Shown here: piece by piece, positions 19,663 through 39,058 of the stretch | How positions within the stretch are numbered: the stretch's first letter is position 1 | Layout of the letters: each line of letters opens with the position of its first letter | Virus record (IMG/VR): IMGVR_UViG_3300016657_000025 | Location: 1-39,368 of that record | Length of the DNA: 39,368 bases | Source of the DNA: a virus | Taxonomy: Duplodnaviria > Caudoviricetes | Direction: 5' to 3' (one strand) | Translations under genes and position numbers: made by a program | Notes under the pieces: generated by a model | The model's database searches: none | Told to the model about the DNA's origin: nothing | The model's input: only the letters and a program-made list of their open reading frames with translations

Positions 19663-19926
19663 ATGAAAAAAGCATTGATTTCACCAAACGAATCTGTCTC
19701 CTACATTTCTTCTTGGAGTCTCGTCGGGGATGTGTATAGGCCCATTTTCACTGTAGTTGGCGAAAGGGTAGCAGAGGTTGCAGATCAAGAATTTGAAGTT
19801 GCATTACCGCTATTTTGGACAGCTTGTGCTGACGAAACTACCACCAGCGATTACTACTACGACGCGGCCAGCCAACGGATACTCCCTGTACCTACGCCTG
19901 CACCTTACCCGGCCATTGTGGGGTGA
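19663..19926 (+). CDS. Hypothetical protein, possible fibre chaperone
   Basis: GGAG upstream; follows the fibre gene and shares its AT-richer composition. Confidence 0.6.
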   Translation: MKKALISPNESVSYISSWSLVGDVYRPIFTVVGERVAEVADQEFEVALPLFWTACADETTTSDYYYDAASQRILPVPTPAPYPAIVG

Positions 19927-19982
19927 CAATACGCCGACACGGTTACAATACCGAGAACCCAACCCCCGCCAAAGGACCGGCC

Positions 19983-20342
19983 ATGATCGGATCATTTATT
20001 GCTGTCCTGTTCCTGTGCCGTGAATTGGCGCACCGCGAACATCTCCGAACCACCAGTTACGCCCAGCACATGGCCTTGGCGGCTTTCTACGAAGGCATCG
20101 TTGAACTGGCGGATTCTCTGGCCGAGATGTACCAAGGCCGTCATGGTGTCATCGCCAATATCCCGCTTATGCCTGCTGGCCAAACCGGCAACATCATTGA
20201 TGCGCTGGCCAAGTATCTCCAGTGGATCGAAGATAACAGGTACGAGGCTGTGGCGAAAACCGATACAGCTTTGCAAAACCAGATTGACGAGGTTGTGTCG
20301 TTATACCTGACAACGCTGTATAAACTCCGCACGCTGAAATAA
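19983..20342 (+). CDS. Dps/ferritin-like four-helix protein (DUF5856-like)
   Basis: AAGGA RBS; AHREH..T.SYAQHMAL..FY..I.ELADSLAE.YQG and LQNQIDEV...TLYKL. Confidence 0.7.
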   Translation: MIGSFIAVLFLCRELAHREHLRTTSYAQHMALAAFYEGIVELADSLAEMYQGRHGVIANIPLMPAGQTGNIIDALAKYLQWIEDNRYEAVAKTDTALQNQIDEVVSLYLTTLYKLRTLK

Positions 20343-22991: not shown

Positions 22992-24403
22992 TTCAGTAAC
23001 TCCTGTGCTTCTCGATAGTCTTTCAACAGTTTGATCATGCGCCGTTCGTTGGTCTGGCGCTCACGCTGCACGGCCAGCATGACCTCATCAACGGTGTCAC
23101 GCGCCGCGATGTACTTGTACATAACGTGGTCACGCAATCCGACCTGCCGGGACGCGCCGATACGCTCTTTGACCTGTGCATAGGCCTCGCGGCCCCACAG
23201 CATGGAATAAAACACCAGCGTGTTACCACCCGTTTGCAGGTTCAACCCGTGCCCGCCGCTTTGTGGGTGAACGAACATCACCGGGTATTTACCGGCATTC
23301 CAGTCTTCCTGCATCTGGTCAAACTTCTTACCCTTAACGCCTGTGATGTTCGGAGCCTTCGGGAAAGCCTTTTGCAGTTGCTCCAGATCGGGCTTGAACC
23401 AGTAGGCCACCAGCACGTTACCGGACACGCCGTCAATGATCTCTTTTAAGGCTTCGATCTTGGCGTCATGCGTGACGTGCGTTATTCGTGCGCCCTTGTC
23501 GTCTTCAAGATAGATTTTGCCGTTGGCCATCTGCCAGCACTTGGACGATAACGACGCAGCCGACAAGGCTTCGGTGGAACCTGCCGACAACTCCAGGAAC
23601 ATTTCCTTTTCGAGGTCTTGATACATCTTGCGGGCTTTGGGCGGCAGATCAACCCATACGGTTTCCTCGATAACTTCTGGCAACTCCAGCCAGTCCTCGG
23701 CCCGCATAGTCAGCACGATGTCCGAGATGAGCGCCGTTATCTTTTCGGCCGCGTCTTCATCGGGTGTGTAGCCGTAGCCCATGTACCCGGACGGGCTGAA
23801 GAACCGACTGCGGAAACGGTCCACCTGCTGGCCAAGCCGCTGGCCCTCATCAAGGATGTAGATTTGCGCCCACAAGTCGAGCAGACTTTTCGGGGCCGGT
23901 GTGCCCGTGGCGATGTAACGGCGCTTGAACTTTTTAACGTGCCAACGCAGGACACCGAACCGGGTTTTCGCGGCAGGCGTCTTGAACATGCTGGACTCGT
24001 CGATCAGCAGCACGTCATACGGCCAGTCGTCTTTCTTCTTGTGTTTGGCCTTGAGCGTGTGCAGCAGCCAGTACAGTTGCTCGACGTTAATGATATGAAT
24101 CTGGGCGTTCGATTGCAGGGCCAGCAGGCGTGCCCGTTCATCACCCATGATGAGTTTGAACGTCATGCCGCGCAGGTGTGCCCATTTCTTGGCCTCCTGA
24201 CGCCACACGCCTTGTGCCGGACGCAGCGGGGCCACCAGCAGCACCCGCTTTATCTTGCCTTCGTCGAACAGGTCTTTCAGGGCCGTGAGAAAGCTGACAG
24301 TCTTGCCGAGGCCCATGTCGAGAAACAACCCGGCTTGCGGGTGGGACTTAATAAAGTCTACGGCGCGAGTCTGGTACTTGCGCAGGTCTTTTCGGAATAA
24401 CAC
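22988..24403 (-). CDS. SNF2-type superfamily 2 helicase
   Basis: LFLDMGLGKT (Walker A), IDESS (Walker B), ATGTP and HPQSGGHGLNLQ; GTG start behind GAAAGGAAC. Confidence 0.93.
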   Translation of the reverse strand: MLFRKDLRKYQTRAVDFIKSHPQAGLFLDMGLGKTVSFLTALKDLFDEGKIKRVLLVAPLRPAQGVWRQEAKKWAHLRGMTFKLIMGDERARLLALQSNAQIHIINVEQLYWLLHTLKAKHKKKDDWPYDVLLIDESSMFKTPAAKTRFGVLRWHVKKFKRRYIATGTPAPKSLLDLWAQIYILDEGQRLGQQVDRFRSRFFSPSGYMGYGYTPDEDAAEKITALISDIVLTMRAEDWLELPEVIEETVWVDLPPKARKMYQDLEKEMFLELSAGSTEALSAASLSSKCWQMANGKIYLEDDKGARITHVTHDAKIEALKEIIDGVSGNVLVAYWFKPDLEQLQKAFPKAPNITGVKGKKFDQMQEDWNAGKYPVMFVHPQSGGHGLNLQTGGNTLVFYSMLWGREAYAQVKERIGASRQVGLRDHVMYKYIAARDTVDEVMLAVQRERQTNERRMIKLLKDYREAQELLK

Positions 24404-24413
24404 TGGGTTCCTT

Positions 24414-24725
24414 TCACTGAACGGGTTTTATCTTATCACAAATAAAAACCGAGTCCACATCTTTTTTCGTCAGACAGACAAAGACCTTAAAGCCCAACTT
24501 ACGCAACATACCGTGTATGCGCTCTTGCAGGGGCTCAAACTTGCCGCCCTTGGGCCGCTTGAACTCGATAAAGATAACGACGCCCCCGGGCAACAGGCAA
24601 AGCCGGTCTGGCCAGCCCCGCATGAAACGCAACTTGATGGCGTGACCGCCAAGACCCTTGACGGTCTTGACGCCATAGTCCTCGATAACGCTTTCTCGCG
24701 TCAGTCTTTCTTGTACCGGTCGCAC
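24414..24725 (-). CDS. VRR-NUC domain nuclease
   Basis: RESVIE, GWPDRLCLLPGG..IFIEFKRP.G...PLQ. Probable GTG start at 24725 behind AAGGG; the start is uncertain. Confidence 0.85.
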   Translation of the reverse strand: MRPVQERLTRESVIEDYGVKTVKGLGGHAIKLRFMRGWPDRLCLLPGGVVIFIEFKRPKGGKFEPLQERIHGMLRKLGFKVFVCLTKKDVDSVFICDKIKPVQ

Positions 24726-30001: not shown

Positions 30002-30064
30002 TTCGGTTCCTTGTGAAGTTACCACCCTATGTCCGGGGTGGCTGCGGTTGTCTTTCGACGATTC

Positions 30065-30765: not shown

Positions 30766-31218
30766 TTATCTTTCAATGGAGTGGTAAGGGGAACAGGGAA
30801 GCCATACCGTTTTGTACGGGCTGGCCGGGATACGAATCTTACGCTCAACCGGCGCCGCTTTTTGCTTGGGCGGCACGGCCTCCGGCGCAGGTTCTTCGGG
30901 CAGTTCCCTGCGGTATCTGTGGTAGGCCCGGGGCTTCTTGTCCTTGGCGCCTTTGGTGCGGCCACGCGGCTTTTCCACGTAGGCCAGAAAGGCCAGGTAC
31001 TCTTTCTCGTCAACGGCCCAGACGCCGACGTTGCGACTATTGATAACCCGAATTCCGACACGGTGAACCCCCCATCGCTTGTACCAGTGCAGGGCACGCA
31101 GGGTACGCGATACTGAGTCTGCGGTAAGGCCCAAGGCTTGGCCAATCGTTGCCGTATCCAGCGGGCCATATTTGCGCAGGTAATTGACCACGCGGTCTTG
31201 TACGCTGTATGCGCTCAT
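30766..31218 (-). CDS. Winged-HTH DNA-binding protein with basic AT-hook-like segment
   Basis: RVVNYLRKYGPLDTATIGQALGLTADSVSRTLRAL and KPRGRTKGAKDKKPR. Confidence 0.65.
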   Translation of the reverse strand: MSAYSVQDRVVNYLRKYGPLDTATIGQALGLTADSVSRTLRALHWYKRWGVHRVGIRVINSRNVGVWAVDEKEYLAFLAYVEKPRGRTKGAKDKKPRAYHRYRRELPEEPAPEAVPPKQKAAPVERKIRIPASPYKTVWLPCSPYHSIER

Positions 31219-33381: not shown

Positions 33382-33409
33382 TTAAGTTCCTTTCACTGAA
33401 CGAGGCTCG

Positions 33410-33459
33410 ACTATACGATAAAACCCAGATAAAAACCACCCTGTTACAAATTTTTATCG
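33410..33459 (-). promoter_or_regulatory. Candidate leftward promoter with GATAAAA boxes
   Basis: TATAGT (-10-like) at 33415-33410, no canonical -35, and three GATAAAA boxes (two direct, one inverted) upstream. Confidence 0.45.
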
Positions 33460-33466
33460 ACCAGAC

Positions 33467-33491
33467 AAAAAAGAACCCGCCGAAGCGGGTT
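33467..33491 (-). terminator. Intrinsic terminator of the candidate small RNA
   Basis: AACCCGC-TTCG-GCGGGTT-C-TTTTTT on the minus strand. Confidence 0.88.
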
Positions 33492-33586
33492 GTGAGGATG
33501 AGTCTTCCAATCAAGGTGTGCGCCAATCGCCAAGGCCAACAGGAGTGTGAAAGGAACCTTGGAGACAGCCCTGACGACTGACGCAC
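33467..33586 (-). ncRNA. Candidate ~120-nt small RNA with a 21-bp stem and an anti-Shine-Dalgarno loop
   Basis: Promoter and terminator bracket it. 33586-33566 pairs with 33538-33518 without a mismatch using six G-U pairs, which works only on the minus strand. Loop sequence is UCUCCAAGGUUCCUUUCACACUCCUGU. Confidence 0.72.
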
Positions 33587-33593
33587 GGGGGCC

Positions 33594-33602
33594 ATCATAC
33601 CA
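33594..33602 (-). promoter_or_regulatory. Extended -10 promoter (TGgTATGAT) for the candidate small RNA
   Basis: Near-match to TGnTATAAT, with 7 nt between it and the first base of the stem. Confidence 0.6.
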
Positions 33603-33679
33603 CCAATACCGTAAGACTGCACCGCATCTTTCTGTGGCAGAATGTCCGTCCTACTATAAAGACCGGAGTGTGAAAACCC

Positions 33680-35890
33680 ATGACCAGTAATCCCTTCAGC
33701 TACGTCACATCGGGTGGCGTGGTCAACAAGCGCGTCAAGTCCTCAGATAACGACGCAACGCTTAAAGACCTTTACGACCGTTTCAACAAGCCGCTGCAAC
33801 TCGACCTCACGGCCATCGAGTACCACAACGGCGACAAGCAACTGCGCTACGGCGTCAAAAAGGCTCTGCCGTACTTCGTCGGCGGTGAGTTCTCAGACCA
33901 CAAGCGCAGCGACGAGTCCATCAAGACCCGAACGCTCATCACCCTCGACATCGAGCAATCCGACATCGCTGGCGCAGCCCCTCCCCCGCCGCAGGAGATC
34001 GCGGCCAAGCTGGAAGAACTCGGCGGCTGCGGCTGGGTCTACACCTCCATCTCCCATACGCCAGACCGCCCGCGATACCGTGTCGTCCTGCCCCTTGGCA
34101 AGCCCATAGAGCGCAGCAACGAGTACGACATGGGTGAAGCCCTCAAAGCCTCCACGCTGGCCGCTGCGAAGAAGCTGGGCATAGAACAGTGGTGCGCTCC
34201 TGAGTCCTACGTGCTGTCGCAGGCCATGTTCCTGCCGACCATGCTCAAGGGCATGTCCTTCTATCAGGAGTTTGTTGAGGGCAAAGTCTGGAGTCGCGTG
34301 GTCAAGAAAGCGCCTGCCGATATTCCGGACGAGATCGAGATGCCGGACAAGCCCAAGAAGGATGGGCCAGCGGACATCCCGGATGAGCGCCCGGACTTTA
34401 TCTTGCAAGCCATCAAGGCCGCTGGGCTTTATCTCAAGCCCAACAAGCGCCACCCCGGCATGCACTTCATCACATGCCCCTTCTCAGACGAACACGGACT
34501 GGTCAATGAAACACAAACGGTTTACTACGAGGCTCACTTTGACGGCAACCCGAAAGCTGCGGTCAAGTGCTTTGATACTGTGCCTGATGTTGACGGCAAG
34601 CCTCATCTCACCATCGCCTCACTGGTTAGGTATCTTAAAGACGCCGGCCACATCACGGAGGATCAGCAGGCCGAGGCGGGTGTCTTGGACGATCCCGATG
34701 CTTTCGATAAGCTGGCCGACATTGGACAACTACTGGACACACAGCCTGTACCGCGTGAGTGGGCAATCGAGAAGTTTGCGCCAGTCGGGAAGGTGACTGT
34801 GCTGGCAGGCCCGGGCGGGGTGTCCAAGTCCATGATGATGCTGCACGTTTTGACTTATGCGGCGATGGGGCAGGCGTGGGCAGGCTTCAAGCCCGAGGGC
34901 GTTCTTAAATCCCTGTATGTGAGTTATGAAGACGACAAGCAAGAACTTCACAAGCGAATCAACACCCTCGCCAATGAGCTTAGGAATGTTGATGACGGAA
35001 CTTTTGACATGCTGTATGACGTGGATTCGTCGATTCGTCGTAATCTGCGTGTGTACGCTGCTGACGATAACGCTGCTGCATGGCTTTTGGCGGTAAAGCC
35101 GGACAGGTATTCGCCTGCACAAAGGACGCAAAGGGTTGAGTGGCTTATCGACTACGTGAAGTCGCGGGGCATCAAGCTGCTGTGCCTGGACCCCGCTGTA
35201 TACACGCACCAGTTAGCCGAGAACGATGTGGCTGACATGGCCGAGTACATGCGGATACTGACGCAGATTGCCAAGCACGCAGGCTGCGCGGTGGTCGTGC
35301 TGCACCACATGAACAAGGGCGGTGCAAACTCGTCGCTGGATGATGTGACAAGCGGGTCGCTGAGGGGTGCTTCGTCGTTCAGTGATAACGCTCGTTCGGT
35401 CATGACGGTTGTGAGCATGCCCATTCACGATGCTCCGACTTACGGCTTGCCGAGTGACCATGATACGGTTAGTCGTTATCTTGTGGCCAAGCACACAAAG
35501 CACAACTACTCGGGCTCCATGGGCGTGCAGGTGTTTGAGCGCAAAGGCGCATTGCTGATACCCCGCGCGGATGTGGTTCGCCTGAGCGCCGAGGAAGCGC
35601 AGGAAGCGCGTGAGCAGCAAAAGCGTGAGGCCGCACAGCGCAAGATGCTCATGCTGGTGCCAAGGGCTCTGGAAATCCTGTCTGAGGCCAACCAGCCCGT
35701 TTCCCAGAACTTCGTGGGCCATGAGATGAATGCCAAGCCCCAAGTCGTCAAAGAGGTTTTGCAGTGGTGCGTCGATCAGGACTATGTGGAGATGTCCGAA
35801 GGCCCGAATCGCAGCCGTTTGCATGAACTCAACAAAAACGGGCGCGCATACCTGAAATTGCTCAAAAAAGAGGCAAAAAATGGTCTTTAA
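33680..35890 (+). CDS. Primase-helicase (AEP-like primase, AAA_25/RepA-type helicase, C-terminal winged-helix-like domain)
   Basis: TLDIE and YTSISHTPDRPRYRVVLPL (primase); CPF..EH...KCF; GPGGVSKS (Walker A); LCLDP; HHMNKG; LRGASSF..NARS. Confidence 0.88.
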   Translation: MTSNPFSYVTSGGVVNKRVKSSDNDATLKDLYDRFNKPLQLDLTAIEYHNGDKQLRYGVKKALPYFVGGEFSDHKRSDESIKTRTLITLDIEQSDIAGAAPPPPQEIAAKLEELGGCGWVYTSISHTPDRPRYRVVLPLGKPIERSNEYDMGEALKASTLAAAKKLGIEQWCAPESYVLSQAMFLPTMLKGMSFYQEFVEGKVWSRVVKKAPADIPDEIEMPDKPKKDGPADIPDERPDFILQAIKAAGLYLKPNKRHPGMHFITCPFSDEHGLVNETQTVYYEAHFDGNPKAAVKCFDTVPDVDGKPHLTIASLVRYLKDAGHITEDQQAEAGVLDDPDAFDKLADIGQLLDTQPVPREWAIEKFAPVGKVTVLAGPGGVSKSMMMLHVLTYAAMGQAWAGFKPEGVLKSLYVSYEDDKQELHKRINTLANELRNVDDGTFDMLYDVDSSIRRNLRVYAADDNAAAWLLAVKPDRYSPAQRTQRVEWLIDYVKSRGIKLLCLDPAVYTHQLAENDVADMAEYMRILTQIAKHAGCAVVVLHHMNKGGANSSLDDVTSGSLRGASSFSDNARSVMTVVSMPIHDAPTYGLPSDHDTVSRYLVAKHTKHNYSGSMGVQVFERKGALLIPRADVVRLSAEEAQEAREQQKREAAQRKMLMLVPRALEILSEANQPVSQNFVGHEMNAKPQVVKEVLQWCVDQDYVEMSEGPNRSRLHELNKNGRAYLKLLKKEAKNGL

Positions 35891-35905: not shown

Positions 35906-36157
35906 GGTGCTACCGGGTGCTACCCGGGTGCTACCAGTAGCACTTGGTAGCACCTGAAGTGGTGGTGGTGCTACCAACATCCCTTTAGGGGGATTGGTAG
36001 AACCACCCACGGCCCGAAAACCACGTAACCATGCGGGTTGCAGGTGATACCGGACGGTCTGGTAGCACTTGGTAGCACCGGAGAAAATAAGTTCCACGGT
36101 AGCACTCGAAAAACAGGGCAAAAACGGACCCTTTAACGACAACGATTTGGTAGCACC
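35906..36157. repeat. Iteron array (GGTGCTACC / GGTAGCAC[C/T]), probable replication origin
   Basis: About 12 copies of a 9-mer in both orientations directly after the primase-helicase stop. Confidence 0.8.
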
Positions 36158-39014: not shown

Positions 39015-39058
39015 GTTCAGTTCCTTTCAAGTTAGCCGCACTGCGCAGCATGGCCTCT

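Follow-up and report, generated by a model that had tools for sequence, protein, structure and literature searches.

The c4 RNA of phages P1 and P7 and the CI RNA of P4 are phage antisense RNAs that act in trans on phage transcripts by means of short unpaired regions. They are processed, multi-arm (three-arm) RNAs that lie inside the operon they control. The chromosomally encoded bacterial RNAs RNAIII, RsaE, LhrC and the cuckoo RNAs use unpaired CU motifs to cover the Shine-Dalgarno (SD) sites of several mRNAs. C4 RNA is represented in Rfam as RF01695 (PMC2864571). Two further phage sRNAs act in trans: VpdS of phage VP882 on phage and host mRNAs, and PreS of lambda on a host replication gene. 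Both are Hfq-dependent and come from temperate phages; the part of the source drawn on here describes no private tag at the ribosome-binding site (RBS), and does not present PreS as an RBS-blocking repressor of a group of genes (PMC12197685). The start-associated sequence (SAS) of Cluster K mycobacteriophages is an extended RBS tag, private to the phage and going beyond 16S pairing, that precedes non-structural genes; the portion of the paper that deals with its reader leaves open whether this is RNA or protein (PMC3203893).

We have analyzed a stretch of viral DNA of 39,368 nucleotides (the window), a complete 39.4-kb tailed-phage record in which a minus-strand RNA gene stands divergently upstream of a primase-helicase gene (Table 1). 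We consider it probable that this conserved gene encodes a trans-acting sRNA of about 120 nt whose loop covers RBS tags of early and replication genes and thereby represses them, with a second arm that in many relatives is predicted to be host-directed. The unit works like a multi-target anti-RBS sRNA, and is not a member of the C4/CI class. Like c4 and CI it is predicted to act in trans through unpaired regions, and some leaders in the family have a duplicated site with alternative pairing. It differs from them in being a single hairpin with promoter and terminator signals of its own, in having many predicted RBS targets rather than one operon, and in that its carriers appear to be lytic. A search with the Rfam C4 model, at E ≤ 1 for the window and at the gathering threshold for 14 related loci, gave no match. 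With VpdS and PreS the unit would share the character of a trans-acting phage sRNA, whereas those RNAs belong to temperate phages (PMC12197685). Compared with the SAS, the sequence and the host are different, and here a candidate reader RNA co-varies with the tags. The CU-rich-loop bacterial sRNAs are alike in placing a CU motif over SD sites; the present unit is without an Rfam match, and its arms are predicted to act on its own virus and on a host nucleoid gene. Antisense RNAs encoded in cis (sar, OOP, plasmid ctRNA) were considered and rejected, as the RNA starts near 33587 and does not overlap the primase site at 33665-33675. In a survey of 10,006 candidate structured RNAs (Fremin et al., 2023), the loop sequence is not in the supplementary tables searched, sequence archives aside (PMC10690425). 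No paper on this RNA was found in the literature searched, which was the open literature without the sequence supplements of Fremin et al.

Table 1. Coordinates of the RNA unit, the divergent primase gene and the predicted target sites in the window
Feature	Position	Strand	Remarks
Extended -10, TGgTATGAT	33594..33602	-	Stem starts 7-8 nt downstream
Predicted sRNA gene, about 121 nt	33467..33587	-	No ATG ORF inside, no conserved frame
Stem P1, 5' arm	33566..33586	-	21 bp, uninterrupted, with 33538-33518
27-nt loop (arm 1)	33539..33565	-	17-nt core at 33558-33542, unpaired P 0.99
Stem P1, 3' arm	33518..33538	-	Pairs with 33586-33566
3' linker (arm 2)	33492..33517	-	Shortened form of the relatives' motif predicted to pair with host H1-like mRNA
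Intrinsic terminator, UUCG hairpin and U-run	33467..33491	-	Hairpin 33491-33474
Primase-helicase gene (RepA-like, AAA_25)	33680..35890	+	47% identity to P26218 RepA; divergent from RNA gene
Predicted target, primase-helicase RBS	33665..33675	+	11-nt match
Predicted target, first gene of leftward early operon (33381)	33386..33396	-	11-nt match
Predicted target, SNF2 helicase RBS	24406..24417	-	12-nt match; site not conserved in relatives
Predicted target, 32-codon first ORF of right-hand cassette (39014)	39020..39029	-	10-nt match
Weaker site before gene 22991	22999..23006	-	8 nt, other half of loop
Weak site before gene 30001	30005..30012	-	8 nt; -1.5 kcal/mol; orthologues co-vary with loop

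The -10 element, the 21-bp stem with its six G-U pairs, the 27-nt loop and the UUCG terminator are all present base for base as the original prediction had described them. The minus strand had been proposed as the RNA strand, and it folds with z = -2.32 (4 of 200 shuffles), compared with z = -0.32 for the opposite strand (75 of 200); among 28 copies of the unit the RNA strand has the lower fold in 26. The promoter was not listed by a scan for consensus promoters because it has no canonical -35 element. An own promoter, an intrinsic terminator and the lack of a conserved ORF are signals of the sRNA type at the level of sequence, and no frame for a small protein is conserved across the copies. 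Rfam gave no match to the unit, and only an unrelated one (E = 0.25) elsewhere in the window. A single run examined for expression yielded read-length contigs only, one of them at 33397-33547.

In the window the structural arm is of siphovirus type, and the replication arm, which runs leftward, encodes an SNF2 helicase, VRR-NUC, DNA polymerase A, SSB and an exonuclease. The primase-helicase is 57% identical to the homologue of the Manatee Spring phage. As this relative and Rhodoferax phage P26218 point to the Comamonadaceae, the host of the window phage probably belongs to that family. In two control phages, KL1 and JWX, the slot before the divergent primase is filled by a small ORF, for which the KL1 annotation is that of a regulator; in the window the same slot is taken by the RNA unit. 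No protein repressor had been recognized earlier, and indeed neither an integrase nor a repressor family was found among the 64 ORFs of the window, but there is a weak HTH signal at 30766-31218 (E about 0.02). The ORF at 19923-20342 falls in a PHROG labelled transcriptional regulator (DUF5856).

The module of RNA, primase and replication genes is common to the siphovirus-type window and to P22-like podoviruses (P26218 and the Manatee Spring phage), and therefore travels independently of the virion genes. Nine GGTAGC/GCTACC repeats directly downstream of the primase, at 35909-36149, are likely to be an iteron origin. Relatives have repeats of their own in two places, the divergent promoter region and downstream of the primase, hinting at autoregulation of the primase. 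Satellite-like elements are found in two Hydrogenophaga genomes (L051, 7153-14246, with a tyrosine integrase; L052, 7800-14449, adjoining a tRNA-like stretch). Each has small HTH genes, a capsid gene, a primase of the same family as that of the phages and a homologue of the phage LAPVV protein (see below), and they are candidate parasites of the window's phage family. In most relatives the RNA promoter is preceded, at a distance of 5-33 nt, by a TACC-N3-GGTA palindrome (upstream of the -10 in L004-L008, L013, L030-L037, L042 and L045), which recurs in the satellites (about 9365 in L051 and about 9335 in L052); it is decayed in the clade of the window.

Thirty-three related phage loci that have DNA upstream of the primase were examined, and in 33 of 33 the RNA unit is present there. 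These include P26218, whose copy is interrupted by the ends of its record and whose genome paper, in the part seen, lists 0 RNA genes (PMC4657236). The loci came from primase and loop searches together with two GenBank phages. Thirty of them (28 distinct sequences) were analyzed, while L001, L044 and L046 were viewed and left out as duplicates; L041, L043, L047 and L048, whose contigs are equal in length to those of loci already included, and L050, without upstream DNA, are outside the 33. L025 contains the 17-mer without stem or terminator, and was dropped as a chance occurrence. Of the 28 distinct copies, 17 have the same 17-nt loop core (two of them were retrieved through this pattern only) and 26 have a GG(U/C)UCC seed. 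Among 46 viral loci of the wider family that have both motifs, stem and terminator were present in only two, those in which this primase lies close to the RNA; the linker motif occurred at 120 loci, and none but the one already known fitted the unit.

The stems themselves diverge, and the pairing is kept. Relatives have an xAxxxT hexamer at the spacing found in the window, and the first pair of the stem lies at +7/+8 in 18 of 26 copies. With the left arm anchored on the promoter, at least 10 of the 11 outer pairs are canonical in 25 of 25 copies, as against 146 of 516 cross-clade pairings, and each position has several pair types. Pairing with the arm's own partner gives -20.8 kcal/mol and with other partners -13.0 kcal/mol, the own partner being the best in 11 of 19 cases. 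Sequence-only alignment (MAFFT with RNAalifold) failed to recover the stem across divergent copies; the covariation therefore rests on the structure-anchored counts, and for the same reason no covariance model was built. In 20 of 26 copies the loop core is free of pairing (P ≥ 0.79), and the seed is predicted to be paired in 6 of 26.

What does the loop address? The four matches of 10-12 nt listed in Table 1 are exact and lie where the original prediction had placed them, as do those of 8 nt before genes 30001, 32544, 22414 and 7473; there are two further 8-nt matches, before gene 22991 and the HNH gene 36172. Among 52 start regions of the window, runs of at least 10 nt occur in four and runs of at least 8 nt in ten. 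The regions belong to hand-picked ORFs (26 structural and 26 other, terminase omitted) with starts taken by SD score, and include ORF 39014, of only 32 codons, because it had been named in the prediction. When opening energies are considered, the best seven of the 52 are those of SNF2, 33381, the primase, 22991, 39014, 22414 and 32544, all non-structural. The TGA within the SNF2 site doubles as the stop codon of the upstream ORF. The ESM Atlas provided no name for two of the target proteins.

The host 16S tail, GAUCACCUCCUUUCU in five of five genomes, accounts for GAAAGGA only, these seven matching bases being an ordinary SD. The matches go beyond such composition: among 2000 loops shuffled around a constant 16S-like UCCUUUC, 3 reached the sum of the top four matches and 0 the count of runs of at least 8 nt. 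The longer TGAAAGGAAC stands before starts 18 times in seven phages with the canonical loop and 0 times in five control phages; the corresponding numbers for plain GAAAGGA are 38 and 12. A stretch of 17 nt, CGTTCAGTGAAAGGAAC, is common to the sites of SNF2 and of the first early gene (24406-24422 and 33386-33402); it exceeds the loop match, and the shared part can form a small hairpin.

In phages where the loop is altered, orthologous genes carry altered tags. The loop of G009, UUUCGCGAG, is opposite CUCGCGAAAGGAACC over 15 nt, that of G008 is opposite ACACCACUCAGGA over 13 nt, and CCCGUGCAA is common to the loops and primase leaders of L006 and L008. From 33 query families, 14 had orthologues in four variant-loop genomes, none of them structural. 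Four of these 14 conserved early-gene families prefer their own loop (median p ≤ 0.013): the ParB-like protein, the orthologue of 30001, a thymidylate-synthase-like protein and a small Lys/Ala-rich protein, LAPVV. In these four, loop and target RBSs co-vary. Of the remaining ten one is borderline (p = 0.058), the primase has p = 0.175, and eight are at 0.33-0.97. SNF2 is among the last (p = 0.90), and so does not hold up as a conserved target. Since most families have no preference for their own loop, the co-variation is not a genome-wide effect of composition, and the co-varying bases sit outside the 16S match.

With more loop types, in permutation tests of families picked after inspection, LAPVV gave 1-2 of 720 permutations and the ParB-like protein 2 of 120; the result for the primase depends on the set, with 56-1146 of 40320 for eight loop types and p = 0.175 for five. 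The primase leader of the P26218 clade has no loop match, and targets of the canonical loop frequently bind other loop types too. In the window three of the four co-varying families are absent, and the fourth (30001) has the weak site of Table 1. A conserved, unpaired seed with compensatory change in its targets, which would mark the unit as an sRNA, is what these genomes present.

We turn now to the 3' linker, in which a loose pattern finds a CU-rich motif after the stem in 21 of 24 copies. The motif had no enrichment of phage targets over controls. Its complement occurs before ATG codons in hosts, and 7 of 30 fetched sites are the start of a gene for a Lys/Ala-rich, histone-H1-like protein that matches hist_H1_lk_Burk (NF038053) with E about 1e-15, below the curated cut-off. 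The gene is present in 90 of 121 family genomes with a conserved leader, and by hand comparison 59 of 137 genome-wide 13-mer sites are the H1-like leader. This predicted pairing of the linker with a host start, found in many relatives, is new. The helices are of 24 bp (L033), 17 bp (L013), 12 bp (L003, at the start codon) and 11 bp (L040 and L011). They fall by lineage into three registers: the SD and upstream (L033, L013), the SD and start codon (the P26218 clade) and the first codons (L003, L040). The host leaders (L159-L188) are strongly conserved and contain a palindrome, CTTGATCAAG, suggesting that a host regulator also acts there.

This host arm was found after the fact. For 13 copies that were not used for the motif, averaged, the H1-like start ranks 1 of 326 in G011 and 1 of 295 in G018, against a background of only 400 kb per host; the margins are thin (z = -1.44 versus -1.21, and -1.51 versus -1.47), and other subsets rank 1-4. 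An earlier ranking that ended at the start codon gave clear support for L013 and L033 only. We put the chance that a host-directed arm is real for the family at about even, and consider it low for the window's own copy. From the linker of the window the middle part of the motif has been lost; the z scores of this linker on the H1-like start are +0.4 and +1.2, and 0 of 401 genomes has a leader that fits it; the linkers of L031, L032, L037 and L004 are likewise weak. The window linker would pair over 17 bp (-30.3 kcal/mol) with the RBS of a CheY-like response regulator (L461, 1470-1863, in genome G086), beating all 619 background starts. From the gene order we take this gene to be pilH. The site is found in 1 of 30 leaders examined and a search for a spacer-like link between G086 and the phage found none, so that the regulator is a lead only.

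Transcription, pairing in vivo, repression and its timing are what we infer from these features. A host sigma-70 promoter would make the sRNA from the start of infection, and the stem at its 5' end and the terminator would give it a long life, leading to its build-up. The accumulated sRNA would turn down the primase and the operon-leading genes as a group, in a delayed negative feedback. One half of the loop, GGUUCCUUUCA, would read the GAAAGGAAC tag, and the other, CACACUCCU, would read GGAGUGU sites such as that of the primase leader. In many relatives the 3' linker would also pair with the start region of the mRNA for the host H1-like nucleoid protein, an mRNA that the shortened linker of the window copy does not favor. 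A more far-reaching version, to which we give somewhat less than an even chance, is that a single two-armed sRNA replaces a protein repressor in a lytic phage. Its first arm would act on the early RBSs of the phage, and its second on the H1-like mRNA, freeing DNA for replication. The second arm would be re-aimed between lineages, possibly at the pilus response regulator in that of the window.

The original prediction was of a trans-acting repressor that might confer RNA-based immunity or time replication, or else of an RNA that imitates the 16S anti-SD and also hits host mRNAs. A conserved, structured RNA with a loop addressed to the RBSs of its own phage has stood up, and repression with its timing would follow from it; lysogenic immunity and host-wide mimicry have not. 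If already present, the RNA could keep early genes silent in a related phage or satellite that arrives second, or give immunity in an unintegrated carrier state. Clades whose stems are unrelated have one and the same loop core, and cross-protection would be the consequence; there is a ParB-like protein in relatives, and Hydrogenophaga satellites with the same primase family exist. Nevertheless, we think exclusion of this kind unlikely. P26218 is described as lytic (PMC4657236), one satellite integrase, run as a query against 11 genomes, gave no match, and the window is without the ParB-like gene. A GTDB scan found no prophage, its two loci (from 18 candidate stretches) being the Hydrogenophaga satellite-like elements, which are without an RNA unit upstream of the primase. 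With P26218 lytic and the GTDB loci only satellites, we prefer feedback during lytic growth to immunity. It is very improbable that the RNA activates the tagged genes by opening leader structures or recruiting ribosomes, as most sites overlap the SD itself. The ParB-like leaders of G002, G005, P26218 and L030 do contain a second copy of the tag, without an ORF and paired to an anti-SD element, and structure switching may therefore be in play. However, in co-folds of G002 and L030 the anti-SD element, once released, closes the true RBS, corresponding to repression, and the other leaders have no such switch. These co-folds are indicative only, since binding by a loop is beyond what RNAcofold models.

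Slighter still is the chance that the RNA is a general anti-SD mimic that damps host translation, the phage matches being a by-product of strong SDs. UCCUUUC is part of the host 16S tail, and most copies have two CU-rich unpaired stretches, but the co-varying bases fall outside the 16S match. In 151 host genomes the 12-nt tag was found 14 times, less often than its reversed control (28, by hand count), and before unrelated genes. Although TGAAAGGAAC precedes 32 ATGs in 41 host genomes (168.6 Mb), no recurrent target was found there beyond a glutaredoxin-like trio, and 23 ORFs behind loop-tag sites contained 0 homologous pairs. We give the same small weight to a DNA element, a hairpin origin or operator with the repeated tags as protein-binding sites. 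The unit adjoins the primase promoter region, which in relatives has palindromes and iteron-like repeats. Against this, the G-U pairs lie on one strand, the spacing from the -10 is fixed and there is a terminator; the tags are oriented antisense at start codons, and the iteron-like repeats of the window are elsewhere (35909-36149).

To our knowledge, very few sRNAs of lytic phages have a known function, and we know of no reader identified since 2011 for phage-private RBS tags like the Cluster K SAS. At this locus a candidate reader can be seen together with its tags and the compensatory changes in them. The cultured pair of P26218 and Rhodoferax IMCC26218 makes the control of early genes as a group by one RNA directly testable. 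If the second arm is true, a phage RNA would be directed at host chromatin, which would suggest that a poorly studied nucleoid protein of the Burkholderiales plays a part in phage infection.
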